Below, piece after piece: positions 44,404-62,861 of a stretch of 64,000 bases of DNA. Below the pieces are notes generated by a model. It was not told where the DNA came from. It ran no database searches and saw only the letters and a program-made list of their open reading frames with translations. How positions within the stretch are numbered: the first letter of the stretch is position 1; every line of letters begins with the position of its first letter. A program made the translations under genes and the position numbers. Origin of the DNA: Syntrophales bacterium (GTDB taxonomy: Bacteria; Desulfobacterota; Syntrophia; Syntrophales; UBA6109); assembly GCA_035366835.1 (NCBI GenBank), contig DAOSIS010000008.1, positions 38,283 through 102,282 on the forward strand, in the 5' to 3' direction.

Positions 44404-45963
44404 CTAGGGGATGGAAGGTCTGCCGATTCCGTTCTCCAGGGCTTCCCTCAGCGGCCGGAAACCGGAGCGGACGAGATCGGCGAGGGCGACGGGGTCACCC
44501 GCCGAGAGGGCCGACGAGGCCTGTTCGAAGAGCTGGGGGAGGGCGTTCATGACGATCCGCGCGCCGTCGGACGAGCCTTCTACCGGACCGCCGGGTGCGA
44601 GCAATTGCCGCCAGACCTCCAGGTAGCCGGCAAAGGCGTCTTCCCACGAGCGTTCATGGAGACAGAGGGACTCGCGTAGCCGGGACTCGTTTTCTTCCAG
44701 GAGCCGGAAATCCCCCGCCGGTCCGTCAGTCCGGCGGAGCGCCCGGTTTTCCCGGGAAGGGAAGAGCAGGGCAGGATCGTCCGTCCCGACCGCGTTGAAA
44801 TCGTTCAGGGTCATCTCCGCGCCGTCGTCAACGCGGCTGACGAGAAGACGGACGATGCGATCGTCCCATCGGCCGGCGCACCCGCCGCCCCGCGACAGCG
44901 ATTCCCGGATGTCCCAGGCACGGCAGACGTGCTCGGGCCGGATGGCCTTCCGGCATCCCTGACCGTTCCGGCACGATGAAGGATCGAGGCAGGGGGCGCA
45001 GGGGAGGTCGGCGAAGAGAACGAAATTTCCCGTTCCGTACGGTGCCGTCTCCCAAGGGTAGGCCGTGCCGAAAAAGAGGCCGATCACCGGCGTACCGACG
45101 GCCGCAGCCATATGGGCCGTGCCGGTATCGCCGCTGATGAGGACTTCGCAGCGCCTCAACACGGCGCCTAAGGTCTTCAGGCTTGTCCTGCCGACGAGAT
45201 CGACGATCCGGCCGGAGAGGGAGCCGCAGCCGGTCAGGATGCGTTCCGCAAGTTCCCGCTCGTCCGGGCTGCCCAGGAGGACCACCGGCCTCCCTCTGGA
45301 ATCGGCCAAATGGCGGATCGCGCCGAGGAAGTTGTCGGTTCCCCAGCAGCGGAATGACCGGGCGGCGCCGAGCTGCACGGCGACGGGAGGAAGCGCTCCG
45401 CGCACGGAAGCCAGCAGGCGGTCCCCTTCGCGGACGTCCGGCGGCGGAACGTGCAGGTACATCCGGCCGCTCCCCGGCGGTGCGCCGGCGATGCGGAGAG
45501 ACCAGTCGGCCAGGTTCCTCCGATTCCGCCGGCGGTCCGCGCGGACAGCGGAAAAAAGCTCGGCGGAGGGACCGTCGGCGAAAAAGTGCCCGCGTCCCGG
45601 TGCGTAGCTGCCTCCCCTTGTTTCCGGCGCCCCGCAGAGGTGCGCCAGGATCCCGCCGGCTTCGTATTGGCGGTTGATGACCATGTCGAAGCGCTCCGCC
45701 TGCAGCCTTTCGGCGATTTCGTAGATTTCGTGGCGGACCGCCGTCTGCGCTTCCGGACCCGCTTTCAGGAGGCGGCGATATCTTTTTTCCGCGAAGGGAA
45801 CGATCTCGTCGACGCGGGGATGTCCCCGCAGCAGATCCGTGAGGTCCTCCGATGTCAGAAACGTGATCTTCGCATCGGGATGCGTCTTCCCGATCCCTTC
45901 CAGCATGGGTGTGAGCTGAAGAACGTCTCCGAGCCGGTGGGTGCGTATCACGAGGATCTTCAC
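44404..45963 (-). CDS. GT9-family (heptosyltransferase-like) glycosyltransferase with a C-terminal extension of about 180 aa
   Basis: 519 aa with a GTG start. MKILVIRTHRLGDVLQLTP.. and ..ISGDTGTAHMAAAVGTPVIGLF are GT9 hallmarks. GTGA-coupled to the upstream gene. Confidence 0.75.
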   Translation of the reverse strand: MKILVIRTHRLGDVLQLTPMLEGIGKTHPDAKITFLTSEDLTDLLRGHPRVDEIVPFAEKRYRRLLKAGPEAQTAVRHEIYEIAERLQAERFDMVINRQYEAGGILAHLCGAPETRGGSYAPGRGHFFADGPSAELFSAVRADRRRNRRNLADWSLRIAGAPPGSGRMYLHVPPPDVREGDRLLASVRGALPPVAVQLGAARSFRCWGTDNFLGAIRHLADSRGRPVVLLGSPDERELAERILTGCGSLSGRIVDLVGRTSLKTLGAVLRRCEVLISGDTGTAHMAAAVGTPVIGLFFGTAYPWETAPYGTGNFVLFADLPCAPCLDPSSCRNGQGCRKAIRPEHVCRAWDIRESLSRGGGCAGRWDDRIVRLLVSRVDDGAEMTLNDFNAVGTDDPALLFPSRENRALRRTDGPAGDFRLLEENESRLRESLCLHERSWEDAFAGYLEVWRQLLAPGGPVEGSSDGARIVMNALPQLFEQASSALSAGDPVALADLVRSGFRPLREALENGIGRPSIP

Positions 45964-46640
45964 GCGAGCATTTCCTCGATCAGCAGATCGACGGAACGCG
46001 CCCTTGCGCGCGCCCCGGTCCCGCCGGCGTCATCTCCGCCCGCGGAGCGGATTTCGTAGAGCCGCCGCTGGAGGACGCCGGTGACGGCGCCGTACAGGGC
46101 AGGTTCCACGGCCGGCGCCGACGGGGTGATGTGCAGAGAAAACTCGCCGGCAAGCCCGGACAGGAGGGGATTGCACAGATCCCGCTGATCCCGTCCCGCG
46201 ACCAGTCGGCAGGGCCGGTCTCTCAGGAGTCGAACGAAGGCAGGTATCGCAGCAGCGGCGCGAAGCAGTTGCGGGTCGGACTCCACCAGCCAGAACGCCG
46301 TGATGCCGGGATGGCGTCCGGCGAGCGCGCAGGCGCAATAGCCCAGTCCCGCGCCGATCACGACTGCCGTATTCCGGACCCTCCGCTGCCAGCCGGTCCA
46401 TTCTTCCGCTTCCGCGACCGGGTCGATTCGGCTGTGCAGGAGGCGTTCGCCGCCGTCGCGTTCGACCCTCGCGGCCGTGAGGTCCCCGGAGGCGGCTCGA
46501 AAGAGACGCACCACCGGGAGGCCGGCCGGTTCGGGAAGGCCCTGCCGTCGCAAGTCGCCCGGTACTGTTGCGGCGGATCCTTCACGCGGCACTTTGCAGC
46601 TCCTGCAGGTCTTTGATGACAGAGGCCCGTCCCTTGGCAA
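45960..46640 (-). CDS. Maf N-terminal-domain-like / Rossmann-like protein of unknown function
   Basis: At most 226 aa. LLHSRIDPVAEAEEW..TAVVIGAGLGYCACAL parallels the N-terminal part of the adjacent Maf (QMLYDPEDPWGA..IAVFLGLGLGYHLHLF). The start is uncertain because the ATG 46640 ORF overlaps the maf 3' end by 59 nt. Confidence 0.45.
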   Translation of the reverse strand: MPRDGPLSSKTCRSCKVPREGSAATVPGDLRRQGLPEPAGLPVVRLFRAASGDLTAARVERDGGERLLHSRIDPVAEAEEWTGWQRRVRNTAVVIGAGLGYCACALAGRHPGITAFWLVESDPQLLRAAAAIPAFVRLLRDRPCRLVAGRDQRDLCNPLLSGLAGEFSLHITPSAPAVEPALYGAVTGVLQRRLYEIRSAGGDDAGGTGARARARSVDLLIEEMLA

Positions 46641-48504
46641 GGGCTTCCATGGTGGAGACGAAGAGTTGTCCCGTCACGCCGAGCCACTCGCGGACCATGA
46701 GCACCTGCGCGGCGGCGCGGCAGTCCCCGTCGGTGTAAAGATCAGGCAGGAAATTGAATTTGTTGGAGAACCAGATGCCGTGCGGCTGGAGGGTGTGCAG
46801 CATGATGTCGTTGACATCCTGATCCCGGAGAAACTCGTTCAGGATGACCAGAAATCTCTCGATCACGTCGTCGACGATCTTCCGGTCGAGGGGTGCGCCG
46901 GAATTTATGAACGGAACAATCTGGTCCCGCTGCACGGCCCTTGCCGTTGCCAGCAGCTCCTGAAATCGAACCGTCAGTGCGTCCAGTGCCGCATGGGTGT
47001 GATCGATCCGTTTCAGAAGGGCCTCGTAGTCCTCCCGTGCATTCAACTGATCGCGAAAACCCGCCAGGGCCTTCTTGATGATCGACAGGGGGTGCCGGTC
47101 TTCACGGCAGTAACCGTCGATCGCCTCCTGAAACGTCATGATGCGGGCCCCGCGGATCCTGGCGCCGCCTTCCGTCGCATTGATCGTGATCCCGGAATTG
47201 GCCCGGATGTCCTCTTCGTAGGATCCCCGAAAGATGTCCCATGCCCTGGAGGTCTTGATCGGCTTCCCGTCGTTGCCCTCCACTTCGAGGACTTTTTCGT
47301 GATAGTTCTCGTCGCGTTCGCCGAAGGGCATGTCCTTCACGTGCGTATCGCCGTCCGCGGCAAAGGCGAGATCCTGTCCGATCATGATGATGGGGTCGCA
47401 TCCGAGCGCGTGGGCGACCTTGTAGGCCATGTTGCCGACACAGGGGCCGATGGCCAGGGCGCCTTTGTCGAGATGGAGCCAGTTGAAATGGGAAAAGGTC
47501 CGGTGGACGATGATCTTTTCGCCCCGGAAGCTGTCGAACGACTGCGGCCGGATCAGGGGGCAGATGGCAAGATAGATGTCTTCGAAGTCCGGGACGCCGT
47601 CAAAGAAGTATTCCGTGCCGTCCGTCCTCTCCAGGCTCACGACAAGGTGCGGCCGGATGTTGCGCTTCATGAGAGGCTTGAAACTCGCGTCGCAGCAGAT
47701 GATCAGGGCCTTCTCCCGGACCTTCTGAATCAGGTGGATGTTCTTGTTCAGGGAGGGGCCGGCGCCGACGGTCACGGCGGGCAGGCCTTGAAACCGTCCG
47801 AAAAGACGGTTGATGCCCGGATTGTTGACGATGTGCCGGATGTTCATGAGGAGGTTGTCCATCCCGATGAACGAATCGATGGGATCGTTTCCCGCCATGA
47901 TCATGGTCTGCGAGAAGGCGCGTTTTGTGACGTCGAGCGCCCGGCGGTAATAATCGGGGTTCCTCCGCACATGGGGGGCCAGGGGGATGACTTTGGTGGA
48001 CTTCATGAAATTGAAGACCCCCTTGTCCATGACGACGTCCTGCCGCAGGGTCAGATAGGCTTCTTCGATGTCTTCGCCGACGAAGAACTGGACATCCGGA
48101 TGCAGGAAGATTTCGGAGAGATCGATCGTCTCCACGGCAAGCCTCAGGAAATCGCGATTCTCCTCAAACACCAGGATTTTTTTCGTTCCCAGCCGTTCCG
48201 CGAAATTTCTCGTGAACAGGTGGAGGTGATACCCGAGACCGAGACCGAGAAAGACGGCGATGGGCACGAAGTTCATCTTCAGCGCCTTGAGATGGGCCAG
48301 GGAAGCGCCCCACGGATCTTCCGGATCGTAGAGCATCTGGAAACGGTGGTCGTCGGCGACAAGAAGATTGGGTTGCCCGTTCCGGGCACGGACAAACCGA
48401 TATTTCCCGGCGTCCGGACGGAGATCCTTCACCCGTTCGGCCAGACGGGGATAGCGCTTCTGCAGCGCATTCATGTTCCTGGCAAAGAGTGCCGTTTGCG
48501 GCAT
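46582..48504 (-). CDS. maf: Motility accessory factor (Maf, DUF115/MptE-like) putative flagellin nonulosonic-acid transferase
   Basis: 640 aa from ATG 48504 (AAAGGAG RBS). DUF115 core motifs VTVGAGPSLNKN, IICCDASFKPL, GPCVGNMAYKVAHALGCDPIIMIGQDLAF. Confidence 0.8.
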   Translation of the reverse strand: MPQTALFARNMNALQKRYPRLAERVKDLRPDAGKYRFVRARNGQPNLLVADDHRFQMLYDPEDPWGASLAHLKALKMNFVPIAVFLGLGLGYHLHLFTRNFAERLGTKKILVFEENRDFLRLAVETIDLSEIFLHPDVQFFVGEDIEEAYLTLRQDVVMDKGVFNFMKSTKVIPLAPHVRRNPDYYRRALDVTKRAFSQTMIMAGNDPIDSFIGMDNLLMNIRHIVNNPGINRLFGRFQGLPAVTVGAGPSLNKNIHLIQKVREKALIICCDASFKPLMKRNIRPHLVVSLERTDGTEYFFDGVPDFEDIYLAICPLIRPQSFDSFRGEKIIVHRTFSHFNWLHLDKGALAIGPCVGNMAYKVAHALGCDPIIMIGQDLAFAADGDTHVKDMPFGERDENYHEKVLEVEGNDGKPIKTSRAWDIFRGSYEEDIRANSGITINATEGGARIRGARIMTFQEAIDGYCREDRHPLSIIKKALAGFRDQLNAREDYEALLKRIDHTHAALDALTVRFQELLATARAVQRDQIVPFINSGAPLDRKIVDDVIERFLVILNEFLRDQDVNDIMLHTLQPHGIWFSNKFNFLPDLYTDGDCRAAAQVLMVREWLGVTGQLFVSTMEALAKGRASVIKDLQELQSAA

Positions 48505-48524: not shown

Positions 48525-50951
48525 TCAGCACGGCTGGATTGCCGGTGCCGGGGACGGAGGCGCGACCGTCGGGTCCTGGGGATGGACGATCATTTCAGCC
48601 ACTTTCTGAAGGAGGCTGCATTCCCGGCGTTTTCCCGTCTCGAGAAAATGACGGCTGATTTCGATCAGACGCAGCGCCAGCCCGGAAAAATCGGACAGGG
48701 ACGGCGTCCCGGGAACGCCTGCCGCGGCCCCGACGTCCTCGACGGCGCGGGCTACGCCTTCCCAATGGCCGGCTTTGGCCAGCGCGTAAATCCCGCCGAT
48801 CTTGTAGCGCAGATTCCAGGGATCGAGATCCCGGGCGTCGGCGATGCGGCAAACGCCGTTTTCCAGGTCGCCCGTCTCCAGAAGGGAGAGACCGTCCAGG
48901 AACCGCGCGCGTGCGGACTGCTGACGGTCCCGGCCCAACTCCTCCGCCTCGAGAAGAGGTTCCAGGAGGGAAACGACATCCCCGTGGCGGCATTGGGCCG
49001 TCCGATAGTCGGCGGCGGCCACCTGCAGCTCCACGGAGGAGGGGAATCGGTCCAGCATCCGCTGCAGGAAAAAATCCAGGCCGGCGACTTCATAAAGGGC
49101 GTAAAGACTGACGATTCTTGCGGCGAATTTCACGTCCTCGAGATTGCAGCGCTCGAGCCACGGCAGGGCAGAGGCAAGATCGCCGGCAGCAAGGAAATGC
49201 ACGAATCCCTTCCAGGCGATATCCAGGACGTCGGTGAAGGAAAACGCGGCGCGCACGGCGGCGTCTTTCCGCCGCTCCCGGCGCGGGCGGTCCTGCCGCG
49301 CATGCGTGACCTTGAAGACGTCGTTCCACTTGACCTCGATGCCGAGGTCCGCCAGCGACCGTTCCGCGGTTTCGAATGCGGGGGATTCGAAGAAGACGTT
49401 CCTTTGCGCAGGAAAGATGCGGACCGGACAATCCGCCTGCGTCTGCTTCGGGAGGTGAAGCATGACGAGCATCTCCTCTTCCGGCTCTTCCGCCTCGATC
49501 CTGGTGCGGAATGCCAGATGTCGCTCGCGAGGCAGGATTTGCTTGAACAGGGCGAACTTGAGGCGCTCCCGGGAATCGATGAACTCGTCTGCATCCAGGC
49601 AGAGGATGTAATCTCCCGTTGCCTCGCGGAGGCCGGCATTGCGGGCCCCTGCAAAGTCGTCTTGCCAGGGAGAGCCGATCACCCGGCACCCGGACGCGGC
49701 GGCGATGTCCCGCGTACCGTCTTTGGACCCCGTATCGACGAGGATCACTTCGTCGGCGATCCCCGCGACCGATTGCAGGGTTCGGGGAAGCGTATTTTCC
49801 TCGTCGCGGGCGATGATGCAGACGGAAAGCCTTGCCGCTCGCCAGCCGGGACTCGTGACGACGGCCAGAAGCCGGTGATCGAAGGGGTTGTACTGCAGGG
49901 ATTGGGAACGTTCCAGGACCTCGACGGCCTCTTCTCTCCGGCCTTGCAGCAGGTAGGCCTTGCCCAGAAACGACAGGACTTCGGCGCGGGCGTCCCGATG
50001 CTCCGAGGAGAGGTATCGGAGATAGCACCGGACCGCCTCGTCCATTTCCAGCAGATGGGCATAGAGAAATCCTGCGATGCGATACGGTACCGGAGAGTCG
50101 AAGAATCCCCAGCTCTTTTCCCATCGCTGGAAGAATTCGACGGCTTCGCGGAATCGCCCGAATTTCGCCAGGTAGTGGAGCATGGTGAGGTACATTCGCT
50201 CGCTCCCGAAACCCTTTTCCAGTCCCCGGTAATACCGCGGCACGTCCTCCATGGTCAGGACGCTGAAGATGAGGAATCTGTCGCTGAACTCCTCCAGCTT
50301 GTCTCCGTCCGTCGTGTCGCAGGACAACTCGCCCCTGAGAAACTTCATTTCCGTTTCCTTGCGGTCCTTCGTCTCGTCGCCCTTTCGGTCGGGGGTGGAG
50401 ACGGAGGAAACATCGATTTCCCGAAGGACGTTGCTTTCGAAGGGAAAGCAATCGTCCCCGGAGCGCGTCATCATCAGCTTGAGCAGACGGCGGAAGAGCG
50501 ACCTGCGGACGAGGCGGATTTCTATCACCGGCAGGGAGACGCCGGGACTGTCCGTTTCCAGTTCCTCACGTTGCCTGATCCACTGGAATTCCCTCATCCC
50601 TTCCTTCGGCACCTCTTCCCGAATCACGAGGCTGAAGCCCCGGGCGCGTTGATCGGCGAGACAGGAATCGGCGGAGAAGTTCGGGGCCACTGACACGGTT
50701 TCCTCCGGGCGGAGGAAAAGCACCCAGGGGGTCCGGCAGTCCTCTTCCGCCTTTGCGAGAAATTCGGGGGTAGGCCGCGCTTCGGCCATGACCGGTATCC
50801 CCCGTGATCCGGCAACGGCCGTGCTGCCGTCGCTCGAATCCATGTCCAGGTACCGGATGTCCCGTGCAAGCTTCCGGCAGCTTTCAATGCAGGCCGGAAG
50901 GCTGTCGCCGCGATCTTTCCCGACAATCCAGATGCTCAACGCGTCCGTCAT
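48525..50951 (-). CDS. TPR-repeat protein with tandem GT2-like domains
   Basis: 808 aa from ATG 50951 (ATGA-coupled). Canonical GT2 domain LSVCIIARDEENTLPRTLQSV..VILVDTGSKDGT..ARNAGL..YILCLDADEF. An N-terminal degenerate GT2-like domain, with TPR-like helical repeats between and after. Confidence 0.75.
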   Translation of the reverse strand: MTDALSIWIVGKDRGDSLPACIESCRKLARDIRYLDMDSSDGSTAVAGSRGIPVMAEARPTPEFLAKAEEDCRTPWVLFLRPEETVSVAPNFSADSCLADQRARGFSLVIREEVPKEGMREFQWIRQREELETDSPGVSLPVIEIRLVRRSLFRRLLKLMMTRSGDDCFPFESNVLREIDVSSVSTPDRKGDETKDRKETEMKFLRGELSCDTTDGDKLEEFSDRFLIFSVLTMEDVPRYYRGLEKGFGSERMYLTMLHYLAKFGRFREAVEFFQRWEKSWGFFDSPVPYRIAGFLYAHLLEMDEAVRCYLRYLSSEHRDARAEVLSFLGKAYLLQGRREEAVEVLERSQSLQYNPFDHRLLAVVTSPGWRAARLSVCIIARDEENTLPRTLQSVAGIADEVILVDTGSKDGTRDIAAASGCRVIGSPWQDDFAGARNAGLREATGDYILCLDADEFIDSRERLKFALFKQILPRERHLAFRTRIEAEEPEEEMLVMLHLPKQTQADCPVRIFPAQRNVFFESPAFETAERSLADLGIEVKWNDVFKVTHARQDRPRRERRKDAAVRAAFSFTDVLDIAWKGFVHFLAAGDLASALPWLERCNLEDVKFAARIVSLYALYEVAGLDFFLQRMLDRFPSSVELQVAAADYRTAQCRHGDVVSLLEPLLEAEELGRDRQQSARARFLDGLSLLETGDLENGVCRIADARDLDPWNLRYKIGGIYALAKAGHWEGVARAVEDVGAAAGVPGTPSLSDFSGLALRLIEISRHFLETGKRRECSLLQKVAEMIVHPQDPTVAPPSPAPAIQPC

Positions 50952-51595
50952 ATGCTTGCCCCTGAAGGAATTCCGTTCTGCTGATGGTGCATGTCTTTCC
51001 AGTCGCCGCGCCACAACCCCAGGAGAATTTCATCCTGGAAGCCCCCTCCGGTCATCCATTGGTTCTTCAGGCATCCCTCGCGGCTGAATCCGACCTTGAG
51101 AAACGCCTTTTCCGAACCGCGATTTCCGGAATAGCATCCGGCGCGGAGCTTGTTGAGGTTTTGAACGTCGAAGGCGAAGCGGGCGACCGTTGCGATCGCC
51201 TCCGTCGCATAACCCCTGCCCCAGCATTCCTTTTCGCCGATCAGAAGGCTGATGTCCGCAAAACGGTGGATCCGGTTGACGGGGCCCAATTTGATGTTTC
51301 CGATGTGGCGGCCGCCCTCCTTGAGGCAAATGGCGAGGAAGATCTCGTCGGGCCTGACGTTCTTTTCCTCGACGAAACGCCGGATGTCCTCGATGGAATG
51401 AGGGATGTAGCGGATTTCGAGAAACTGCGTGACCTCGGGGTCGTTGAGCCAGCGGAAATAGGCCTCGCCGACGTCGGCGAGGCGCACGTCCCGCAGATAG
51501 ATCCTCTCTCCCTCGAGGAAATGTCGCGGCAGGGGTTTCTCCTGTCCTGCCCGGCCCCGCGTGGTTCCTTCGTATTCGGGTACTGCGGCGTTCAC
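50948..51595 (-). CDS. pseH: GNAT N-acetyltransferase (PseH candidate)
   Basis: 215 aa from GTG 51595 (AAGGA RBS). RimL/GNAT pattern (IYLRDVRLADV..FRWLNDPEV.., IGEKECWGRGYATEAIATVARFAF). Confidence 0.7.
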   Translation of the reverse strand: MNAAVPEYEGTTRGRAGQEKPLPRHFLEGERIYLRDVRLADVGEAYFRWLNDPEVTQFLEIRYIPHSIEDIRRFVEEKNVRPDEIFLAICLKEGGRHIGNIKLGPVNRIHRFADISLLIGEKECWGRGYATEAIATVARFAFDVQNLNKLRAGCYSGNRGSEKAFLKVGFSREGCLKNQWMTGGGFQDEILLGLWRGDWKDMHHQQNGIPSGASI

Positions 51596-55341: not shown

Positions 55342-56110
55342 GGACAGGTCCTTTCAGGGATTCTTCGTCCAGCAGTTCCATACGCAGGTAGATCTTCCGT
55401 CCGTTCCGCCGGACGAAGGCGCCGCCGTAGGGCGGGAAGGTCTGCGCCCGGATCAGGTCGATGAGGCGTCCCGCGGGATAGGATGCCTCGGGATCGATCT
55501 CCGCCAGCCTTTCCAGGTCGCGAACCCTGTGGAAGGTCCCGCAGGAAGGCGACTGGGACCGGCGCGGCAGGGAGCCGGTCCGGATCGCAGGCCAGGAATC
55601 GGCGAAGAGTCCGATGCAGGCCTCCTCCAGTTTTCGGTACAGCGTCTCGGCCGTGTCGGTCGGATCGGCCGCCACCGCGCGCTGCGCGAGGATGTCCCCC
55701 GTGTCGATCCCCTCGTCGACCATGTGGATCGTTGCGCCGGCCGGGGTTCCGTCGAGGATGCTCCAGGCGTTCGGATGGGCGCCGCGGTTGTAGGGCAGCA
55801 GGGCGGGGTGGAGGTTGATCACGCCCCGTGGAAAGAGATCTAGGATCTCTCTCCGGAGGAGATAGCCGAAAAAGGCGCTGACCCCCATCTCGGGCCGCAG
55901 GTCCCGGAGACGCCCGAAAACGTCGGGATCGGAGAGCCGTGATCCGTCGAGAAGGGCATCGGGCGCCGCGGCGTCCGCGAGGATCTCCCCGCCGAACTTG
56001 CGCCGCTCCGGCGGGTGGAGAACGAACCCGGCGATCTCTTCGCCGGCTTCCTGCAGGTGCCTCAGGACCTGCCAGCCGACCCGGTTGTTGCCGAAGAAGA
56101 CGATCCTCAC
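55316..56110 (-). CDS. Formyltransferase-domain protein
   Basis: 264 aa. Formyl_trans_N motifs INLHPALLPYNRGAHP and VDEGIDTGDIL. No tRNA-binding C-domain. Confidence 0.75.
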   Translation of the reverse strand: MRIVFFGNNRVGWQVLRHLQEAGEEIAGFVLHPPERRKFGGEILADAAAPDALLDGSRLSDPDVFGRLRDLRPEMGVSAFFGYLLRREILDLFPRGVINLHPALLPYNRGAHPNAWSILDGTPAGATIHMVDEGIDTGDILAQRAVAADPTDTAETLYRKLEEACIGLFADSWPAIRTGSLPRRSQSPSCGTFHRVRDLERLAEIDPEASYPAGRLIDLIRAQTFPPYGGAFVRRNGRKIYLRMELLDEESLKGPVHGNGHPDR

Positions 56111-57168
56111 GCGACCTTTCCTTTCCGTCGTTTCATCAGGGTCCTGACGATCCGTTCCGCACCGCGCCCGTCGATCAGCTTCCGTCCCCGGCGCCGCATC
56201 TCCCGCCGCGCCGCGGCGTCGTTCAGCAGGCCCTCCGCCGCTGCCGCGATCCGGGATGCGAGCGTGCGGTCGGGCCGGCCCAGGTTCAGGGCGATCCCGG
56301 CCTCGTGCAGGGACGCGGCGATCGGGGCCTGGTTGTCCGCCGCGACCACCAGAAGCGCCGGCAGGCCCAGGCAGGCCATTTCCCAGCAGGTGCTTCCCGC
56401 GGCGGCGACGGCGACATCCGCCCAGGCCATGTGCTCCGCCATGTTCTCCGCCGCCGGGATCACTTCGCCGCGCAGAGAGGCCGCGCGCATTTCTTCACGG
56501 CAGCGCGCCTCGTCCGGGCTGGCGGGGCCGACGACGGTGCGGACTTCCACGCCAGCCGTTGCGAGGCCCCGCAGGGCGCGGATCGTCGTCGGGCCGAGTC
56601 CGAGCGGATCGGCGCCGCCCATGGTCACGAGGATCCGGCCGGCCTCGGCGCGAACCCTTTTCCGGTCGGCCTTCCGTTCCAGAAATTCTCGGCGGATCAT
56701 CGCGAAGCGGCTCCCCAGGAGGAGGCGGGTCCTTCTTCCTGTCGTCGGGTAGAGGTCCTCCCGGGCGTAGAGATTCGCATTGATCACGATCTCGGCCTCA
56801 TACCGCCCCGCGACGCCGTTGTCGTCGATCTGCGCCACCGGCAGCCCCCCGCTGCGGACCGCCGCGACATAGGCGGCGCCGAAGGCGTATCCGTCCACGG
56901 CCACCCAGGAAGCACCGATCTCCCTGCCGAGGGCGGCCGTCTTCCGGGCGTCCGTGTTTCCCCCTGTCGCTGCGTTCAGGACCGCCGCCTTCATCCCCCC
57001 GCTGGCCAGACGCCCTTCCATCGCCGACGACGCCGAGCCGAACGCGAAGAAGACGTCTCCGGCCAGTTCCCGCCAGGCCTGCGCCAGCGCGATGCAGCGC
57101 ATCACATGGCCCGTGCCGATCCGTTCGTTGCCGTCGGCGCGGATGAGGAGGGTTCCGCCCATCTTCAT
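56107..57168 (-). CDS. pseG: UDP-2,4-diacetamido-2,4,6-trideoxy-hexose hydrolase PseG
   Basis: 353 aa from ATG 57168 (ATGA-coupled). LLIRADGNERIGTGHVMRCIALAQAW and a C-terminal GT-B-like GSTCWEMACLGLPAL. Confidence 0.8.
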   Translation of the reverse strand: MKMGGTLLIRADGNERIGTGHVMRCIALAQAWRELAGDVFFAFGSASSAMEGRLASGGMKAAVLNAATGGNTDARKTAALGREIGASWVAVDGYAFGAAYVAAVRSGGLPVAQIDDNGVAGRYEAEIVINANLYAREDLYPTTGRRTRLLLGSRFAMIRREFLERKADRKRVRAEAGRILVTMGGADPLGLGPTTIRALRGLATAGVEVRTVVGPASPDEARCREEMRAASLRGEVIPAAENMAEHMAWADVAVAAAGSTCWEMACLGLPALLVVAADNQAPIAASLHEAGIALNLGRPDRTLASRIAAAAEGLLNDAAARREMRRRGRKLIDGRGAERIVRTLMKRRKGKVA

Positions 57169-59249
57169 GCCTTCCGGAAGACGGCCTGGACGGGCTCGCC
57201 TTCCAGCCGTGCGGCGACGTCGTCGCAGCGGATTGCGTCCGCGAGGATCTCCAGCGCGGCGCGGTATGCGCGCAGCGTCTCGTCGATGTCGGCGTCGGTA
57301 TGCAGGAGACAGAGGTTCTGGGCGCCTGCAAAGAGGATGCCGCGCTTGAGGCACTCCTGCTGGAAAAGGCTCTTGTACAGAAGCGATTCCGCCCCCGTCG
57401 CATCGCGGAAGCCGATGACGGTCCGCGGCGCGTAACCGCGGCAATCGGTGTACGCCCCGACCCCGAAGGCCTGCGCCAGCACGTTGTAGCCGTCCTGCAG
57501 CTTCCGTCCCTGTTCCCAAAGGTGACCGACGACGTTGCGGCGCTGCATCTCGAGAATCGTCGCCTTCGCGGCGGCCAGGGAAAGCGCCTCGCCGCCGAAG
57601 GTGAAGGAAAAGAACACCTCGTCGAAAAGGGACATGATCTCGCGTTTGCCGACGACCGCGGACAGCGGGTATCCGTTGGCGATGGCCTTGCCGAAGCAGG
57701 CGAGGTCGGGCGTCACGCCGAAGTGCTGCTGGGCGCCGCCCAGGGCCATGCGGAAGCCGGTGATCATCTCGTCGAAGACGAGCACGCTCCCTTCCCGGCT
57801 CGTCAGATCCCGCAGCCTTTCGAGAAAGTCGTCCTGCGGTGCGGCGATGCCGACGGGCTCCAGGATGACCGCCGCCACGCGGTCCGGGTGTTCGCGGAAG
57901 ATCCGCTCCGCCGAGGCGATATCGTTGTAGGAAAAGGGGGCCGTCAGGGCGCGGCAGCTCTCCGGAACGCCGCGGTTTCTTGTCGTCGATCCGATGTACC
58001 AGTCCTGCCAGCCGTGATAGCCGCAGCAGGCGATCACGTCCCTGCCCGTGAAGGCGCGCGCGGCGCGGACGGCGCCGGCGGTCGCATCGGAGCCGTTCTT
58101 CCCGAAGCGGACCATCTCCGCGCAGGGAATGACCTCCGTCAGCATCTCGGCAACTTCCACCTCCAAGGGATGGGGGAGGGAGAAGGACGTTCCGTCCGCC
58201 ATCTGCCGGGTCACGGCTTCCGTCACGGCGGGGTAGTCGTGTCCGAGAATCACGGGGCCCAGCGCCAGGGGGTAGTCGATGTACTCGTTCCCGTCGACGT
58301 CCCAGACGCGGCAGCCCTTTCCGCGGGCGAGAAATGCGGGTGCAACCCCCTGGACAAACTGCGTCGGCCCCTTGCTCATGGTCTGCGTGCACGAGGGGAT
58401 GACCCGCCGGGCGCGCGCGAGGAGGGCCAGGGATTTCGTGAGGCTTCGCGAACGCGGCGGCAGCGCCGTTTCGCGGGCCAGGGACTTGTAGAACCCCTCG
58501 TTGCGGACGCCGTCGGCGTTGATCTGCGCGATGCCGGGCTCGCGGTCCAGGAGGGCGAGGACTTCCTGCAAACCGAAGCGGTTGCCGTTGCCGCCGAGCC
58601 GCTCGTAGACGGCGCGCACGAACTGCAGGTCCGCCGGTTCGTCGACGGTCCAGCGGAGGTTGCGGGGCGACAGATCGGTTTCGTTTTCGACGCCGGCGAT
58701 GCGGAAACGCCGGGGGTTGCGAATGTAGCTCGTCACGTGTTCGCGGTCCGCGGGCAGGCGCGCCTCTTTCCAGGCCTGCGCCAGCGCTGCGAAGGAAAAG
58801 GACTCGACGTCCAGGCCGTCCGGATAGGTGTAGCGGAGGCGGTTCGTCACATAGTCGACGTCCCCGGCGAACCCGCGGAGGACGACCTTGTCCACGACGG
58901 CGGGATCGATCAGCGGGCAGTCGGCGGTGATCCGCACGACGACGTCGGCGCGGAATTCGGCGGCGGCGCGATAGAAGCGGTCCAGGACATCGTCTTCGCT
59001 GCCGCGGAAGACGTCGATGCGGCGGGCCCGGCAGAACGCTTCGACGGCGTCGTCCGCGGAACGGTCCGTCGTGGCGACGACGACCCTCTCCACGGTCCGC
59101 GCCTGCCTGACGCGCTCGACGACATGCTGCAGCATCGGCTTGTCCAGGATCGGCTCCAGGACCTTGTTCGGCAGACGGCTCGAACCCATCCGGGCCTGAA
59201 CCACGGCGACGACATGGGGCTTCTTGCGCAAAGGTTTGCTCCTCTCCAT
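57165..59249 (-). CDS. Fusion protein: SpsF-like cytidylyltransferase (N-terminal) :: class-III aminotransferase (GSA-aminomutase-like, C-terminal)
   Basis: 694 aa in one frame with no stop. N-domain VVAVVQARMGSSRLPNKV..FRGSEDDVLDRF..RITADCPLIDP. C-domain RVWDVDGNEYIDY..FDEMITGFR..FGKAIANGYPLSAV. The boundary is near 58466. Confidence 0.8.
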   Translation of the reverse strand: MERSKPLRKKPHVVAVVQARMGSSRLPNKVLEPILDKPMLQHVVERVRQARTVERVVVATTDRSADDAVEAFCRARRIDVFRGSEDDVLDRFYRAAAEFRADVVVRITADCPLIDPAVVDKVVLRGFAGDVDYVTNRLRYTYPDGLDVESFSFAALAQAWKEARLPADREHVTSYIRNPRRFRIAGVENETDLSPRNLRWTVDEPADLQFVRAVYERLGGNGNRFGLQEVLALLDREPGIAQINADGVRNEGFYKSLARETALPPRSRSLTKSLALLARARRVIPSCTQTMSKGPTQFVQGVAPAFLARGKGCRVWDVDGNEYIDYPLALGPVILGHDYPAVTEAVTRQMADGTSFSLPHPLEVEVAEMLTEVIPCAEMVRFGKNGSDATAGAVRAARAFTGRDVIACCGYHGWQDWYIGSTTRNRGVPESCRALTAPFSYNDIASAERIFREHPDRVAAVILEPVGIAAPQDDFLERLRDLTSREGSVLVFDEMITGFRMALGGAQQHFGVTPDLACFGKAIANGYPLSAVVGKREIMSLFDEVFFSFTFGGEALSLAAAKATILEMQRRNVVGHLWEQGRKLQDGYNVLAQAFGVGAYTDCRGYAPRTVIGFRDATGAESLLYKSLFQQECLKRGILFAGAQNLCLLHTDADIDETLRAYRAALEILADAIRCDDVAARLEGEPVQAVFRKA

Positions 59250-59251: not shown

Positions 59252-60289
59252 TCAACGACCTTCCATGTGCACGAATGCGTTGGATTTCGCCGAACGTTTT
59301 GCGGCGAAGGCGATCTCGAGGACGCGCGCGGCCTCGGCGACGTCGAGGCAGGTCCGCGTGCGGCCGGCCCGGGAAGCGAGGAAGTGACGCATTTCGTCGA
59401 CATACATGCGGTTGACGTCCCAGGCCCGGGGGGTGCGGAAAGTGCGCCAGCAGCCGTCGCCGGCTGCAAACCAGCGGACGGTCCCGGCCGTGAAGTCCCA
59501 GGCGATCGTGCCCTCCTCGCCGACGATCTTGCAGCGGCGGCTGTAGGCGCGTTGGACGTAGTCGAGGTGGACTTCCCCCACGGCCCCGCGGTTGAAGTAC
59601 AGCAGCATCGCCGCCGTGTCCTCCGTCCGCATCTCGAGGCTGCTGAAAATGCCTGCCATGCAGGCGACGGACTTGACCTCGCCGATCAGCCAGCGGATGT
59701 AATCGATCTCGTGAATGGCGTCGAGGATGACGCCCCCGCCGAGGTCGACGCGCGCGCTGTAGCCGGTCCGGTAGTCTTCGGTCGGGTGCCAGTCCGGCAG
59801 GTACTGGCCGAATTCGACGCTGGCCGACACCACCCGACCGATCTTCCTCTCCTCCAGGAGCTGTTTCACGCGCACGAGCCCGGGATGGAAGCGCAGATTG
59901 CATCCCACCATGCTGACGAGGTCGCTTTTCCGCACCAGCCGGGTCAGTTCCCCGATTCCGCCCGTCCGGTCGGAGAGGGGTTTTTCGATGAAGAGGTCGC
60001 AGCCGCGCCGGGCCGCCTCGAGGGCCAGTTCGACGTGCGAAGACGGCGGCGTCGCGATGAGGACGATATCCGGATTCCATTTCCAGGCCGCCGAGAAGCT
60101 GGTTCCGGCCTCGATCCCGAACCGGGCCGCGGTCTCCCGCGCCCGCTCCGTCGCTCCGTCGCAGGCGCGGATGTCCCCCGCGCGCAGGGCGATCAGGTTC
60201 GAGATGTGGCGCTTTCCGATCGAACCGCACCCGATCACGAGGATGCGCGGCCTCTGCGGGTCCTTGGCGCGTACGGATCGGTTCTTCAT
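59252..60289 (-). CDS. Gfo/Idh/MocA-family NAD(P)-dependent oxidoreductase
   Basis: 345 aa. N-terminal Rossmann motif RILVIGCGSIGKRH and a Gfo/Idh/MocA-like C-domain. ATGA-coupled to pseC. Confidence 0.75.
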   Translation of the reverse strand: MKNRSVRAKDPQRPRILVIGCGSIGKRHISNLIALRAGDIRACDGATERARETAARFGIEAGTSFSAAWKWNPDIVLIATPPSSHVELALEAARRGCDLFIEKPLSDRTGGIGELTRLVRKSDLVSMVGCNLRFHPGLVRVKQLLEERKIGRVVSASVEFGQYLPDWHPTEDYRTGYSARVDLGGGVILDAIHEIDYIRWLIGEVKSVACMAGIFSSLEMRTEDTAAMLLYFNRGAVGEVHLDYVQRAYSRRCKIVGEEGTIAWDFTAGTVRWFAAGDGCWRTFRTPRAWDVNRMYVDEMRHFLASRAGRTRTCLDVAEAARVLEIAFAAKRSAKSNAFVHMEGR

Positions 60290-61509
60290 GCCTGCTCCTT
60301 GCCCGCATCGCGGGACGCGGCCCGCCGAACGGCTTCGATCACCCGGCTCAGGTCCTCGTCCGTCATGGCCGGAAAGATGGGGAGGCTGATCAGCTCGTCG
60401 TGGGCGGATTCGGCAACGGGGTAATCGCCGCGCCGGTATCCGTAGCGTTTCGAATAGTAGGGGTGAAGGTGGACGGGCAGGTAGTGGACGTTGGCCCCGA
60501 TCCCCTGCTCCCGCAGGAGGCGGAAGAAATTTCCGCGGTCGCCGCCGGCGCCGTTCGCCCGGTAGCGCACCGGGTAGAGATGATAGGCGTGACGTACGTC
60601 AGGCGATGTCGCCGGAATCCGGAGCGTCTCCCATCCCGAGAAGGCCCGATCGTATGCCGCGGCGATCTCACGGCGCCGCGACAGGATGTCCGGAAGCCTG
60701 CGGAGCTGGCTTGTCCCCAGCGCGCACGCGATGTCGCTGAGGCGATAATTGTAGCCGAGGTCCATCATCCCGTATTGCCAGGTCCCGCTCTCCGACCTTT
60801 GCCGGTGATCGGTGTCGATGCCGTGATTGCGGAAACGGCGCATCTTGTCTGCGAGGACGGCGTGGTCCGTCGTAATCATTCCGCCCTCTCCGGTCGTAAT
60901 GTGCTTCACGGGATGGAAACTGAAGACGGTGAGGTCCGCGAGCGTTCCCGTCTTTCTTCCCCTGTACTCGGCGCCCAGGGAATGGCAGGCATCGGCGATG
61001 AGGACCAGCCCGTGCCGGTCGGCAAGGGCGCGGAGGGCGTCGTAATCGCAGGGCTGTCCCGCGTAATCGACGGCGACGAGGGCGCGGGTCCGATCGGAGA
61101 CGCATTCCTCCGCCGCCGCGGGGTCGAGCAGCAGCGTTGCCGGGTCGACGTCCGCGAAGATCGGATGACCGCCCTGGTAGAGCACGGCGTTGGCCGTGGC
61201 GACAAACGTCAGCGGCGGGACGATCACGGGATCGCCCGGTCCGATCCCGGCTGCGTACATGGCGGCGTGCAGGGCGGCCGTGCCGCTCGAGACGGCTACG
61301 GCGTATCGGGCCCCGATGGAGGCCGCAAAGGCGTTTTCGAACTCCTCGACGGAAGGTCCCGTTGTCAGCCAGTCCGATTCCAGGACCCGCACGACGGCGT
61401 CGATGTCGTTCTCGTCGACGGATTGCCGTCCATAGGGAATGACGGGGCTTCTGTCGCAGGGACCGTTCCACTTGGCCCTTCTGGGGATTCTCAAGGGGAT
61501 GGTGATCAT
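60286..61509 (-). CDS. pseC: DegT/DnrJ/EryC1-type aminotransferase PseC
   Basis: 407 aa from ATG 61509 (ATGA-coupled). IPYGRQSVDENDIDAVVRVLESDWLTTGPSV and PLP-Lys region SFHPVKHITTGEGGMI. Confidence 0.85.
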   Translation of the reverse strand: MITIPLRIPRRAKWNGPCDRSPVIPYGRQSVDENDIDAVVRVLESDWLTTGPSVEEFENAFAASIGARYAVAVSSGTAALHAAMYAAGIGPGDPVIVPPLTFVATANAVLYQGGHPIFADVDPATLLLDPAAAEECVSDRTRALVAVDYAGQPCDYDALRALADRHGLVLIADACHSLGAEYRGRKTGTLADLTVFSFHPVKHITTGEGGMITTDHAVLADKMRRFRNHGIDTDHRQRSESGTWQYGMMDLGYNYRLSDIACALGTSQLRRLPDILSRRREIAAAYDRAFSGWETLRIPATSPDVRHAYHLYPVRYRANGAGGDRGNFFRLLREQGIGANVHYLPVHLHPYYSKRYGYRRGDYPVAESAHDELISLPIFPAMTDEDLSRVIEAVRRAASRDAGKEQA

Positions 61510-62861
61510 CTCGCTCCGGCTCCTTCCGCCAGGGGAAGCTCCGCGAAGCCCTCCTCGGCATTGACCATGTTCAGTACGACCTTTTCGTTGAGCCTGTGCA
61601 GGGTGGAGAGGAACTGAGCCGTCGGATCCTTTTCCGCCGACGACCCGCAAATCATCCTGCGCAGTTCACCTACGGAAAGCCATTGATCGTTGCTGTTGCT
61701 CACGTAGGAGAAGTTTTCAGGGAGAGGATCGCCGCCCTTGTAGTTCTGGCGCTCCCACCAGGGATAGTTGGGAAGGATGACGTACATCCCTTCGTAGGAG
61801 ACGGCGTGGCGTCCCTCCTCTTCCGTAATCAGGACTTCGTGCAGCTTTTCGCCCGGACGGATGCCGGTGTTGATGACCTCGCAATCGGGGGCGACCGCCT
61901 CGGCCAGGTCCGTGATCTTCATGCTGGGGATACGCGGGACGAAGATCTCGCCTCCCTGCATCTGGCAGAAGGCGCGGACGACGAGATCGACGGCCTGGTC
62001 GAGCGTGATCCAGAAACGCGTCATCCGGACGTCGGTGATCGTGATCCTGCCGGTCTTCTTCTGTTCCTTGAACAGCGGGATGACGCTGCCGCGGCTGCCG
62101 ATGACGTTCCCGTAACGGACGCAGCTGAAACGGGTGCCGCGGGAGCCGGAGTAGGAATTGCCCTGGATGAAGAGCTTGTCGGCACAGAGTTTCGTTGCCC
62201 CGTAGAGGTTCACGGGGTTGACGGCCTTGTCGGTGCTGAGCGCCACGACCTTCTTGACCCCGACGTCGATGGCGGCATCGATGATGTTCTCGGCGCCGTG
62301 GATGTTCGTCTTGACCGCCTCGAAGGGGTTGTATTCGCAGGAGGGGACCTGTTTGAGGGCGGCGGCATGGACGACGAGGTCGCATCCTTCCATCGCCCGC
62401 CGCAGACGGTCCGCATCGCGGACGTCTCCGATGAAGTACCGGACCATCTCTTCCCCGAAGACCTGCCGCATTTCGTGCTGCTTCAGCTCGTCGCGGCTGT
62501 AGACGCGGAGAACCCGGGGGCGGTAGCGCTCCATCATGACCCTGCAAAAATGTTTTCCGAAGGAACCGGTGCCGCCGGTGATCAAGATCGACTGCTTTTC
62601 CCAATTGATCGTGTCCATGTCCGCATTTCCCTTCTTGAGGATTCGCCGCGCCTGGTCGATGGTGCGGTTGTTGATATGGAGCAGTTCCTTGATCTGCGAA
62701 AGGTTCGTCACGTCCCGCTCCGAATAGCGCCGCTGTCCGCCGGCCGTCCGCCGGGGCCTGACGAATTCGGGAAACTCGCCTTCCCAGAAGCGGATGGTGG
62801 AAGGAGGAACCCCCAAATTCTGGCTGACTTCCTGGATCTTCGACTCTGAACTGGTCTCCAT
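61506..62861 (-). CDS. pseB: Fusion protein: MerR-type HTH domain :: UDP-GlcNAc 4,6-dehydratase (inverting) PseB
   Basis: 451 aa. Residues 1-80: IQEVSQNLGVPPSTIRFWEGEFPEFVRPRRTAGGQRRYSERDVTNLSQIKELL (MerR HTH). From residue 82: ILITGGTGSFG, YGATKLCADKLF, and a PseB/FlaA1-like remainder. Internal ATG at 62618. Confidence 0.85.
   Translation of the reverse strand: METSSESKIQEVSQNLGVPPSTIRFWEGEFPEFVRPRRTAGGQRRYSERDVTNLSQIKELLHINNRTIDQARRILKKGNADMDTINWEKQSILITGGTGSFGKHFCRVMMERYRPRVLRVYSRDELKQHEMRQVFGEEMVRYFIGDVRDADRLRRAMEGCDLVVHAAALKQVPSCEYNPFEAVKTNIHGAENIIDAAIDVGVKKVVALSTDKAVNPVNLYGATKLCADKLFIQGNSYSGSRGTRFSCVRYGNVIGSRGSVIPLFKEQKKTGRITITDVRMTRFWITLDQAVDLVVRAFCQMQGGEIFVPRIPSMKITDLAEAVAPDCEVINTGIRPGEKLHEVLITEEEGRHAVSYEGMYVILPNYPWWERQNYKGGDPLPENFSYVSNSNDQWLSVGELRRMICGSSAEKDPTAQFLSTLHRLNEKVVLNMVNAEEGFAELPLAEGAGAR

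Follow-up and report, generated by a model that had tools for sequence, protein, structure and literature searches.

Glycosylation of flagellin with pseudaminic acid (Pse) is well known in a few pathogens but almost unstudied in anaerobic syntrophs. The described systems closest to the locus considered here, a run of 15 genes in a 64,000-nt stretch of Syntrophales bacterium contig DAOSIS010000008.1 (the window, to which all coordinates refer), are the flagellin Pse systems of Campylobacter jejuni and Helicobacter pylori. As in those systems, PseB, PseC, PseG and PseI are recognizable at equivalog level, a PseA/WbuX-type amidotransferase is accompanied by HisH- and HisF-like partners and by a Maf transferase, and the genes are linked to flagellar genes and to a flagellar sigma-factor-type promoter. 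Differences from C. jejuni and H. pylori are the lack of a PseF or PseH equivalog, the fusion of an SpsF-type cytidylyltransferase to an aminotransferase, an additional oxidoreductase of the Gfo/Idh/MocA family (Gfo) and a formyltransferase, a DNA-binding domain on PseB and three further transferase types. We consider it quite probable that the 15 genes make up a flagellin glycosylation island, i.e., an autoregulated operon for synthesis of a Pse derivative and its transfer to flagellin. Support for this reading, which agrees with the initial annotation of this DNA in proposing flagellin glycosylation with an atypical Pse-type sugar, comes from equivalog matches, from the presence of Maf together with a GmaR-like glycosyltransferase, from the fliC context and from the gene order of a sister species.

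Individual parts of the locus have counterparts in other systems. GmaR of Listeria monocytogenes, a TPR-containing flagellin O-GlcNAc transferase of glycosyltransferase family 2 (GT2), has an additional anti-repressor role. TnrA, GlnR and the B12 photoreceptor CarH contain minimal MerR-type domains, the oligomeric state or activity of which is set by another domain or enzyme, and CarH binds three 11-bp direct repeats that overlap a −35 box. PseB of H. pylori is a hexamer, and PseB is feedback-inhibited by CMP-Pse. In Acinetobacter baumannii, the Gfo/Idh/MocA enzyme ElaA oxidizes the C8 hydroxyl of a CMP-linked legionaminic acid (Leg), CMP-Leg5,7Ac2, and ElaC, a short-chain dehydrogenase/reductase (SDR), reduces the oxidized CMP-Leg back from the opposite face (PMC13656337). 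EpaA, a CTP_transf_3 domain fused to an aldo-keto reductase, acts with EpaB to convert Pse5Ac7Ac to its 8-epimer, as shown by NMR (PMC12053666).

Core pathway genes and their organization

Family assignments were made with Pfam and NCBIfam profiles and with the curated equivalog cut-offs of NCBI. Gene calling placed the locus at positions 44404–62861, which run exactly from the stop of the GT9 gene to the start of the MerR::PseB gene (18,458 nt) and contain 15 genes, all on the minus strand, as initially annotated; profile searches of each open reading frame (ORF) also backed every gene family that had been named. The start codons chosen agree with those called independently on other assemblies in which the proteins are identical. 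Identical PseI was found on 19 contigs and identical MerR::PseB on 11, from anaerobic-digester metagenomes and three NCBI metagenome-assembled genomes (MAGs), and since identical proteins were called on these other assemblies, neither fusion protein of the locus is an assembly artefact. Seven of the 14 gene junctions, rather than nearly every one as first described, are 4-nt ATGA or GTGA overlaps, and the other seven (+2, −26, +4, +4, +10, +20 and −11 nt) are all tight, with gaps of no more than 20 nt. The frequency of promoter-like and terminator-like sites within the operon was not above that in shuffled sequence, and an Rfam scan of positions 36000–64000 revealed no RNA families. The 15 genes probably form one operon, transcribed from the flagellar sigma-54-type promoter described below. 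The core genes, with two further genes that bear on the question of PseF and PseH, are as follows.

61506–62861, minus strand: MerR-like DNA-binding domain (residues 8–76) fused to PseB, UDP-N-acetylglucosamine (UDP-GlcNAc) 4,6-dehydratase (inverting); Pfam and NCBIfam
60286–61509, minus strand: PseC aminotransferase; TIGR03588, 462.2 bits against a cut-off of 423.5; ATGA overlap with pseB
57165–59249, minus strand: SpsF-type cytidylyltransferase fused to a class-III (glutamate-1-semialdehyde aminomutase-like) aminotransferase, 694 aa; CTP_transf_3 and Aminotran_3 (AT3)
56107–57168, minus strand: PseG, UDP-sugar hydrolase; TIGR03590, 185.9 bits against a cut-off of 153.55
54250–55341, minus strand: PseI, pseudaminic acid synthase; TIGR03586, 480.2 bits against a cut-off of 340.25
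50948–51595, minus strand: GNAT acetyltransferase (Acetyltransf_3); Pfam

PseB passed TIGR03589 with 504.4 bits (cut-off 407.75), and PseC, PseG and PseI likewise exceeded their cut-offs, while PseI scored 303.5 bits on the NeuB model, below its cut-off of 399.65. The PseB/C/H/G/I set had been called complete, which held for PseB, PseC, PseG and PseI but not for PseH, the GNAT scoring only 29.7 bits on TIGR03585 against a cut-off of 93.1. The absence of a canonical PseF, also proposed earlier, was evident from the score of the SpsF-type domain on TIGR03584 (30.1 bits, cut-off 205.7) and from a search within the window with a canonical-looking cytidylyltransferase from related locus L173, which found no match. 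Judged from the sequence, the missing PseF is best read as replaced by the SpsF-type cytidylyltransferase domain. Domains of this type occur in most of the environmental PseB/C/G/I clusters fetched, and an SpsF-type enzyme has been proposed as a replacement for NeuA in a Pse cluster of Moritella (PMC7371886). In a Bacillus subtilis spsF mutant, Leg accumulates in the mother cell and is not transferred to the spore surface, which places the genetic requirement for the SpsF-type enzyme at a stage later than nonulosonate synthesis (PMC7439481).

Glycosyltransferases and flagellar context

The genes for transfer lie at the downstream end of the operon, next to the filament genes, and one more glycosyltransferase gene lies just upstream.

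63111–64000, minus strand: CgeB-like glycosyltransferase (Glyco_trans_1_2), 3′ part, cut by the window end; PF13524, E 5e-32
48525–50951, minus strand: TPR plus GT2 glycosyltransferase, GmaR-like, 808 aa; Pfam GT2 at residues 397–480, with TPR
46582–48504, minus strand: Maf-family flagellin nonulosonate transferase; MptE-like PF01973, E 2e-44, and Maf_flag10_N PF20157, E 4e-16
45960–46592, minus strand: stand-alone Maf N-terminal-domain protein (MafN), 210 aa; HMMER scan; translationally coupled to GT9
44404–45963, minus strand: GT9 (heptosyltransferase-family) glycosyltransferase with a C-terminal extension of about 170 aa; Pfam PF01075
44186–44213, minus strand: sigma-28-type fliC promoter TAAAGTTC-N12-TCCGATAC; exact match to TAAAGTT-N13-YCCGATA
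42587–44017, minus strand: flagellin FliC, 476 aa, presumed acceptor; Pfam Flagellin_N/C
37920–42340, minus strand: fliD (999 aa), fliS, a fliT/flgN-like gene and flaG, downstream of fliC; Pfam
23380–24090, plus strand: FliA-like sigma factor gene of the flagellar supercluster

The Maf-family transferase, which scored 205 bits on the PseD domain model (under the cut-off), adjoins the flagellin genes, fliC lying 2.5 kb downstream on the same strand. In agreement with the earlier placement of a flagellin gene immediately downstream, only 386 nt separate the operon from fliC. Ser and Thr account for 26% of the residues of the FliC central domain. The window as a whole is a flagellar supercluster (fliF to fliW, and fliA), with the operon at the end of a flagellar cluster of about 40 kb. 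The genes fliF, fliG, fliI, fliK, flgE, motA, fliM, flhB, flhA, flhF, flhG and the FliA-like sigma factor gene, together with fliL, rod genes, flgI, flgK, flgL, csrA and fliW, are on the plus strand. The minus strand carries, in convergent orientation, flaG, the fliT/flgN-like gene, fliS, fliD and fliC, with the operon behind them. Because the operon runs into fliC-fliD-fliS-fliT-flaG and includes both Maf and a GmaR-like GT2, flagellin is the likely acceptor.

GmaR was the top PDB match of the GT2 domain (E 5e-18). Like GmaR, the 808-aa protein combines a GT2 domain with TPR repeats; unlike GmaR, with which about 100 residues align, it has an unmatched N-terminal region of 250 aa and a long C-terminal region. 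A tandem GT2 had been annotated, but a single GT2 domain was detectable with Pfam and NCBIfam, there being no GT2 match in the N-terminal 284 aa even at E 0.5. By eye, this N-terminal part resembles a degenerate GT2, a resemblance unsupported by profiles.

MafN has no match in Pfam or NCBIfam, shares one 10-residue motif with Maf by BLASTP and retrieved only itself in a word-indexed search. Its interpretation as an orphan or decaying gene was overturned by an exhaustive HMMER scan, which matched it to free-standing proteins about 200 aa long, including two above the Pfam Maf_flag10_N threshold, as well as to N-terminal residues 30–190 of genuine Maf proteins, and so bore out its original designation as a maf-N-like ORF. 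The order Maf-MafN-GT9 is kept in loci L177 and L178.

None of the RfaC, RfaF, RfaQ and heptosyltransferase I–III equivalogs was passed by GT9, the best being heptosyltransferase I (112 bits against 185). Relatives of GT9 that modify proteins exist, such as the autotransporter heptosyltransferases. The full CgeB-like gene, seen in locus L087, encodes 353 aa and is preceded, beyond the window end, by a gene for a TPR protein of 246 aa. Beside a related MerR::PseB cluster in L175 are GT9 and CgeB-like genes related to those of the window (31% and 47% identical, respectively). The three transferase types first listed (Maf, GT2 and GT9) were confirmed as families, whereas the fourth, the CgeB-like enzyme encoded just upstream on the same strand, had been overlooked. 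As recurrent partners of MerR::PseB clusters even where no Maf is nearby, GT9 and the CgeB-like enzyme hint at a role in flagellar or protein glycosylation.

The sigma-28-type pattern TAAAGTT-N13-YCCGATA had 4 matches against 0.05 expected, and the fliC promoter is conserved in the sister species (L178). A further exact sigma-28-type promoter was noted upstream of fliD (42434–42460, minus strand), and matches with two mismatches upstream of flaG (38316–38342, minus strand) and of an unannotated region (33257–33283, plus strand). The fliC 5′ leader of about 170 nt (44018–44185, minus strand) contains GGA-rich stretches, one of them at the ribosome-binding site AAGGAGGA. These stretches and the nearby csrA (36976–37242, plus strand) and fliW (37239–37733, plus strand) are consistent with CsrA/FliW control of flagellin translation. 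FliD, at 999 aa (39341–42340, minus strand), is about twice as long as usual for a filament cap, a length kept in L178 at 83% identity. Besides the full flhB (18073–19146), the window contains an ORF of 179 aa (27865–28404, plus strand) that matches only the C-terminal part of FlhB (Bac_export_2 positions 258–335).

DNA-binding domain of PseB and the upstream region

The first gene of the operon encodes an N-terminal winged helix-turn-helix (MerR_1, PF13411, E 8e-19) that ends near residue 80; residues 81–90 are predicted to be disordered and PseB begins at residue 88. Among the best homologues of this protein, 120 of 120 carry MerR_1 together with the dehydratase domain, and those with a name in their source are called UDP-N-acetylglucosamine 4,6-dehydratase, to which "(inverting)" or "5-epimerase" is sometimes added. 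Thermodesulfobacteriota contain further instances of the fusion, and no paper on a MerR-PseB fusion was found in the literature searched. By sequence, the DNA-binding domain is nearest to Thermus CarH, followed by GlnR and CarA. An AlphaFold model of the domain (mean predicted local distance difference test score 83, core above 90) shows a four-helix winged helix-turn-helix followed by a disordered linker, with no coiled-coil helix; neither the C-terminal dimerization helix nor the effector domain of the MerR family was found in it. A fold search returned TnrA (4r22) first, RacA (5i44) second and DNA-bound CarH third, with template modelling scores of 0.64–0.75, and also matched GlnR, the matches being MerR-type domains in complex with DNA; identity was highest, at 37–39%, for CarH. 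The matching CarH structure was crystallized on a 26-bp DNA, which we take to carry the three 11-bp direct repeats that overlap the −35 box. The following elements were noted upstream of the operon.

63067–63086, minus strand: palindromic element GGAAAAATTTTCCCATCCCC, putative activator (enhancer) site at a distance of about 85 nt upstream from the sigma-54 motif
62986–63001, minus strand: sigma-54-type promoter motif TGGCATATCGTTTGCA; TGGCAY-N5-TTGCW
62948–62981, minus strand: three phased direct repeats TGAAGTTCACC / TGAAAGTTGAAT / TCAAGTTTTAC, candidate operator, conserved in 11 loci
62931–62938, minus strand: degenerate sigma-28 −10-like element ACCGAAGG, with CCGA invariant in alignment A1

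Exact matches to the pattern TGGCAY-N5-TTGCW number three in the window, where 0.06 would be expected. The two besides the operon motif are at flagellar genes, the first at the start of the fliK region (6252–6267, plus strand) and the second about 36 nt ahead of the rod-protein gene at 28632 (28581–28596, plus strand). This excess suggests that part of the flagellar cluster is probably sigma-54-dependent. The GGCA and TTGC of the motif are invariant in 11 of 11 independent loci (alignment A1), and a similar GGAAA-TTTCC palindrome lies 85–90 nt upstream of the motif in L172, L173, L176, L095 and L092. No sigma-70-like promoter was found upstream of the operon, nor a MerR-type palindrome in a sigma-70 spacer of 19–20 bp. 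A sigma-28 promoter was rejected as the driver of the operon, the pattern here having 4 mismatches and no match being found at 2 or fewer, and for this reason the sigma-54 motif was taken as the main promoter.

The repeats, which share an AAGTT core, keep a fixed spacing of 12 and 11 nt in 11 loci that range from 40 to 61% GC. In 2.57 Mb of fetched DNA the tripartite pattern occurred 17 times, and 15 of these occurrences precede a MerR::PseB start by 87–230 nt on the coding strand; as the pattern was derived from these same sequences, the count indicates specificity rather than independent discovery. Motifs were present at 2 of 95 and 1 of 95 unfused pseB genes, a comparison confounded by phylogeny. 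A repeat finder applied to positions 62862–63112 returned nothing, the three repeats being seen only as a cross-species footprint. Like CarH, TnrA and GlnR, the fusion protein contains a minimal MerR-type domain, and, as with CarH, three phased repeats accompany the promoter. Unlike in those systems, the partner is a sugar-nucleotide dehydratase and not a B12-binding domain or glutamine synthetase, and the repeats, which differ in sequence from the CarH operator, are a candidate operator only.

It is conceivable, though we think it somewhat doubtful, that the MerR-like domain is no autoregulator and that the AAGTT repeats are sigma-28 or UP-type elements or the sites of another flagellar regulator. 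The third repeat resembles a sigma-28 −35 box, a CCGAWA element follows 12 nt beyond the repeats in 11 loci, relatives of this locus carry the consensus CCGATA, and the true sigma-28 promoters of the window use TAAAGTT. Against this, the −10 element is degenerate here while the three repeats are intact, which suggests that the repeats are conserved for a purpose other than binding of sigma-28; the fliC and fliD promoters have a single box rather than three; the tripartite pattern is found almost only upstream of MerR::PseB; and CarH, the structural match most similar in sequence, was crystallized on DNA that presumably holds three such repeats.

Several other features of these upstream regions were noted. 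In L102 (5693–7300) and L105 (477–2098), a separate gene for a MerR-type protein of about 125–140 aa with a C-terminal helix stands directly upstream of an unfused pseB, and upstream of this split form are a sigma-54 motif and repeats of the AAGTT type about 6 nt apart. The 5′ leader of the operon contains a GC-rich near-palindrome of 20 nt, GGAGCAGCCAAGGCGGCTCC (62913–62932, minus strand; 9-nt arms, one mismatch and a 2-nt gap), which overlaps the end of the −10-like element and could form a stem-loop but is not conserved in relatives. Long leaders (150–230 nt) before MerR::PseB in L175 (9817–9977), L095 (1588–1714) and L094 (2581–2678) are filled with short tandem repeats rich in ACCGTT/AACGGT.

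Tailoring genes

In addition to the SpsF-aminotransferase fusion and the GNAT, the operon includes the following genes for modification of the sugar.

59252–60289, minus strand: Gfo/Idh/MocA NAD-dependent oxidoreductase (ElaA-like class); Pfam
55316–56110, minus strand: sugar N-formyltransferase, PseJ-like; Formyl_trans_N and N_formyltrans_C
53022–54245, minus strand: WbuX/PseA-type N-acetyl sugar amidotransferase; TIGR03573, 343 bits against a cut-off of 203 (subfamily level)
52399–53025, minus strand: HisH-like glutaminase subunit; GATase, and TIGR01855 at 233 bits
51606–52394, minus strand: HisF/WbuZ-like cyclase-type subunit; His_biosynth domain

The formyltransferase, whose gene stands between pseG and pseI, has PseJ of the Pse5Ac7Fo route as its closest solved relative (6ci2/6ci4, top PDB match, E 7e-29). 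The likeness is limited to the catalytic core, residues 77–203; unlike PseJ, the protein contains the N_formyltrans_C dimerization domain of dTDP-sugar formyltransferases, and the GNAT encoded in the same operon means that formylation may not be exclusive. The HisF/WbuZ-like protein scored slightly below both relevant cut-offs (WbuZ, 278 against 300 bits; hisF, 281 against 295). The WbuX/HisH/HisF trio is, we assume, the counterpart of C. jejuni PseA with Cj1315c and Cj1314c. The initial prediction of an acetamidino- and/or formyl-modified nonulosonate appears sound in view of the PseJ and WbuX matches, although the chemistry had already been published, PseJ and PseA having been described in 2024 as completing the routes to Pse5Ac7Fo and Pse5Ac7Am (PMC11040635). 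Formyl and acetamidino decorations are accordingly known chemistry. The GNAT, which shares 31% identity with the GNAT portion of a PseG::GNAT fusion from the related cluster L175, is by its sequence a possible PseH analogue or N8-acetylase, and the PseJ-like formyltransferase, in place of PseH, could take the acylation step.

The least understood chemistry of the locus, for which no precedent was found in the literature searched, is that of the Gfo enzyme and the aminotransferase. The conserved pyridoxal phosphate (PLP) lysine is present in the AT3 domain, and more than 8000 proteins from many phyla are homologous to the fusion of SpsF to a class-III aminotransferase at an identity of 63% or above. 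Across the fetched loci Gfo and the AT3 domain tend to co-occur, and in two proteins of about 1035 aa (P0082 and P0102) Gfo/Idh/MocA, CTP_transf_3 and Aminotran_3 are joined in a single chain. These triple fusions constitute Rosetta-stone evidence that the three activities work together. When families and architecture are compared, the locus resembles A. baumannii ElaABC (8-epi-Leg) and EpaAB (8-epi-Pse) in pairing a Gfo/Idh/MocA oxidase with a CTP-transferase, and EpaA in the fusion of CTP_transf_3 to the second-step enzyme. In contrast with both, the second step here falls to a PLP aminotransferase, not to an SDR or an aldo-keto reductase, and the module, which would work like these systems but belongs to neither, would be expected to aminate and not to epimerize. 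By this analogy, the module probably oxidizes and then aminates C8 of the CMP-sugar to give an 8-amino Pse derivative, and the GNAT, the formyltransferase or the amidotransferase could decorate the new C8 amine.

A possible but rather unlikely alternative is that Gfo and the class-III "aminotransferase" do not aminate C8, and instead act on an earlier UDP-sugar, by 3-oxidation and 3-amination of the WbpB/WbpE kind, or produce an amino-acyl substituent, or bring about epimerization. Gfo passed none of the NCBIfam equivalogs, and its closest family models, all under cut-off, include UDP-GlcNAc 3-dehydrogenase and inositol dehydrogenases. Its PDB relatives are Gfo/Idh/MocA-family dehydrogenases, among them 3q2k and 3q2i, termed only "oxidoreductase" and "dehydrogenase" in the search output, which we believe to be WlbA sugar-nucleotide 3-dehydrogenases. 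Also on the side of the alternative, the nearest solved relatives of the aminotransferase are glutamate-1-semialdehyde aminomutases and aminoglycoside C-6′ aminotransferases. In favor of C8 are the architecture of EpaA, which acts with EpaB at C8 of Pse, the activity of the Gfo-type enzyme ElaA on C8 of a CMP-nonulosonate, and the natural occurrence of an 8-amino manno-nonulosonate, i.e., 8-amino-3,5,7,8,9-pentadeoxy-manno-nonulosonic acid, in the O-antigen of Tenacibaculum (Flexibacter) maritimum (PMC3210612). Which genes make the 8-amino sugar is left undecided in the paper on the Tenacibaculum O-antigen, and no paper in the literature searched joined "triamino" with "nonulosonic".

Nor do we favor, while allowing it as a possibility, the production of several simpler known sugars in parallel (Pse5Ac7Fo, and Pse5Ac7Ac or Pse5Ac7Am), with different transferases for the different donors. 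The PseJ-like enzyme and the GNAT could compete for one 4-amino group, and the locus has two Maf-related genes in addition to three further transferases. Simultaneous production of many variants of Pse and Leg is known from C. jejuni. More than 20 CMP-linked sugars have been described in a preprint across several C. jejuni strains. However, the Gfo enzyme and the AT3 domain need a role beyond the known Pse variants, and, because the AT3 domain is fused to the sole cytidylyltransferase, every CMP-sugar passes through the SpsF::AT3 protein.

Distribution in other genomes

In the sister species (L178), the order GNAT, TPR-GT2, Maf, MafN, GT9, fliC, fliD, fliS, fliT, flaG is kept. Flagellar proteins are 80–83% identical between the two species while the transferases are only 44–63% identical, and the tailoring genes upstream differ. 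A Formyl_trans_C protein of 348 aa replaces the genes upstream of the GNAT (L178, 679–3609), and a DUF4910/DUF2172 aminopeptidase-like protein is encoded directly after the GNAT. The sugar cassette thus seems to have been swapped between close relatives, with transferases and filament genes retained. Without nearby Maf or flagellin genes, the eleven-gene biosynthesis block was found in another Syntrophales MAG (L007, with the MerR fusion), in MAGs of Manganitrophus, Ignavibacteriales and Longimicrobiales and in Paenibacillus thalictri; a Nanoarchaeia MAG contains part of it. As judged by these comparisons of sequence, the island is modular, a portable sugar cassette being joined to a flagellum-specific transferase block.

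MerR::PseB clusters elsewhere were also seen beside motility genes, directly after flgK-flgL-csrA-fliW in L176 and, in three other MAGs, beside a che operon with a conserved TPR gene in between. A TPR protein of 235–247 aa (33–53% identical) is encoded upstream of MerR::PseB in L087 (7741–8481), L172 (8628–9335), L173 (8978–9709) and L174 (8880–9623), immediately upstream in L173 and L174 and one gene apart in L087 and L172.

That the biosynthesis genes mainly serve another glycoconjugate (lipopolysaccharide (LPS), capsule, S-layer or general O-glycosylation), with the proximity to fliC incidental or secondary, is suggested by the occurrence of this cassette, in some cases lacking the amidino trio, in Acidobacteriota, Bacteroidota, Manganitrophus and Nanoarchaeia MAGs with no Maf or flagellar gene seen within 10 kb, and by the classical roles of GT9 and CgeB-like enzymes in LPS or the spore surface, but is very improbable here given one tight operon that includes Maf as well as a GmaR-like GT2 and belongs to a flagellar supercluster, immediately upstream of fliC, a sigma-54 motif common to the operon and the flagellar sites of the window, and MerR::PseB relatives that adjoin flagellar or chemotaxis genes.

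Discussion

In the pathway that we infer from gene families, order and context, PseB and PseC would convert UDP-GlcNAc to UDP-4-amino-4,6-dideoxy-L-AltNAc, the 4-amino group of which would be given a formyl group by the PseJ-like enzyme and/or an acetyl group by the GNAT. PseG would remove UDP, PseI would condense the hexose with phosphoenolpyruvate, the SpsF-type domain would add CMP and the WbuX, HisH and HisF proteins would convert an N-acetyl to an acetamidino group. The Gfo enzyme would oxidize a hydroxyl of the CMP-sugar, most likely that at C8, and the AT3 domain would turn the ketone into an amine, so that genes 1–11 would yield one or more CMP-activated Pse derivatives. Maf would then place the nonulosonate on Ser or Thr of the flagellin central domain, and the GmaR-like TPR-GT2 protein, as well as GT9 with its Maf-N-domain partner, would add or extend other sugars. 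The CarH/TnrA-like domain fused to PseB would bind the three repeats just downstream of the promoter, probably autoregulating the operon.

Several observations weigh against the proposal of an autoregulated flagellin glycosylation island. The source organism is uncultured. Neither PseH nor PseF is represented by an equivalog, and the joint presence of a formyltransferase, a GNAT and an amidotransferase may mean that several alternative sugars are made. The family matches of Gfo, all below cut-off, include UDP-GlcNAc 3-dehydrogenase and inositol dehydrogenases, and the carbon that it would oxidize may be one other than C8. The upstream repeats have no more than a 5-nt core in common and do not reach significance in the window alone, and, as the third falls on a sigma-28 −35-like box, they could be elements of a promoter. 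Lastly, the presence of the cassette in Acidobacteriota, Bacteroidota and Nanoarchaeia MAGs, away from Maf or flagellar genes, implies that the sugar is not flagellum-specific.

Overall, the locus belongs to a familiar type of system, the flagellin glycosylation islands that have the Pse pathway as their basis. What goes beyond that is, tentatively, a joint reading in which PseB is a "trigger enzyme" that binds the AAGTT repeats and in which Gfo and SpsF::AT3 provide a route to 8-amino nonulosonates. In such a device, supply of the sugar would be set by the ligand state of the enzyme, for example by UDP-GlcNAc or CMP-Pse; by analogy, binding of CarH to three repeats, the hexameric state of H. 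pylori PseB and the feedback inhibition of PseB by CMP-Pse would make an autoregulatory enzyme of this type plausible.

If neither part of this reading holds, the locus would be an ordinary, though gene-rich, flagellin glycosylation island. If either holds, it would widen the known chemistry of bacterial sialic-acid-like sugars or define a new class of enzyme-regulator fusion. Neither the likely 8-amination module nor the fusion of enzyme and regulator, with the conserved promoter-operator region upstream of it, is described in the literature searched, and both extend well past this genome. The trigger-enzyme device, if real, would be common to many Syntrophales, Desulfobacterales and related lineages, while Gfo with SpsF::AT3 would, if its proposed action is correct, be the missing route to 8-amino (5,7,8-triamino) nonulosonic acids, which would be common on environmental bacteria and present on this flagellin, and thousands of environmental nonulosonate clusters would contain an "oxidize then aminate" module.

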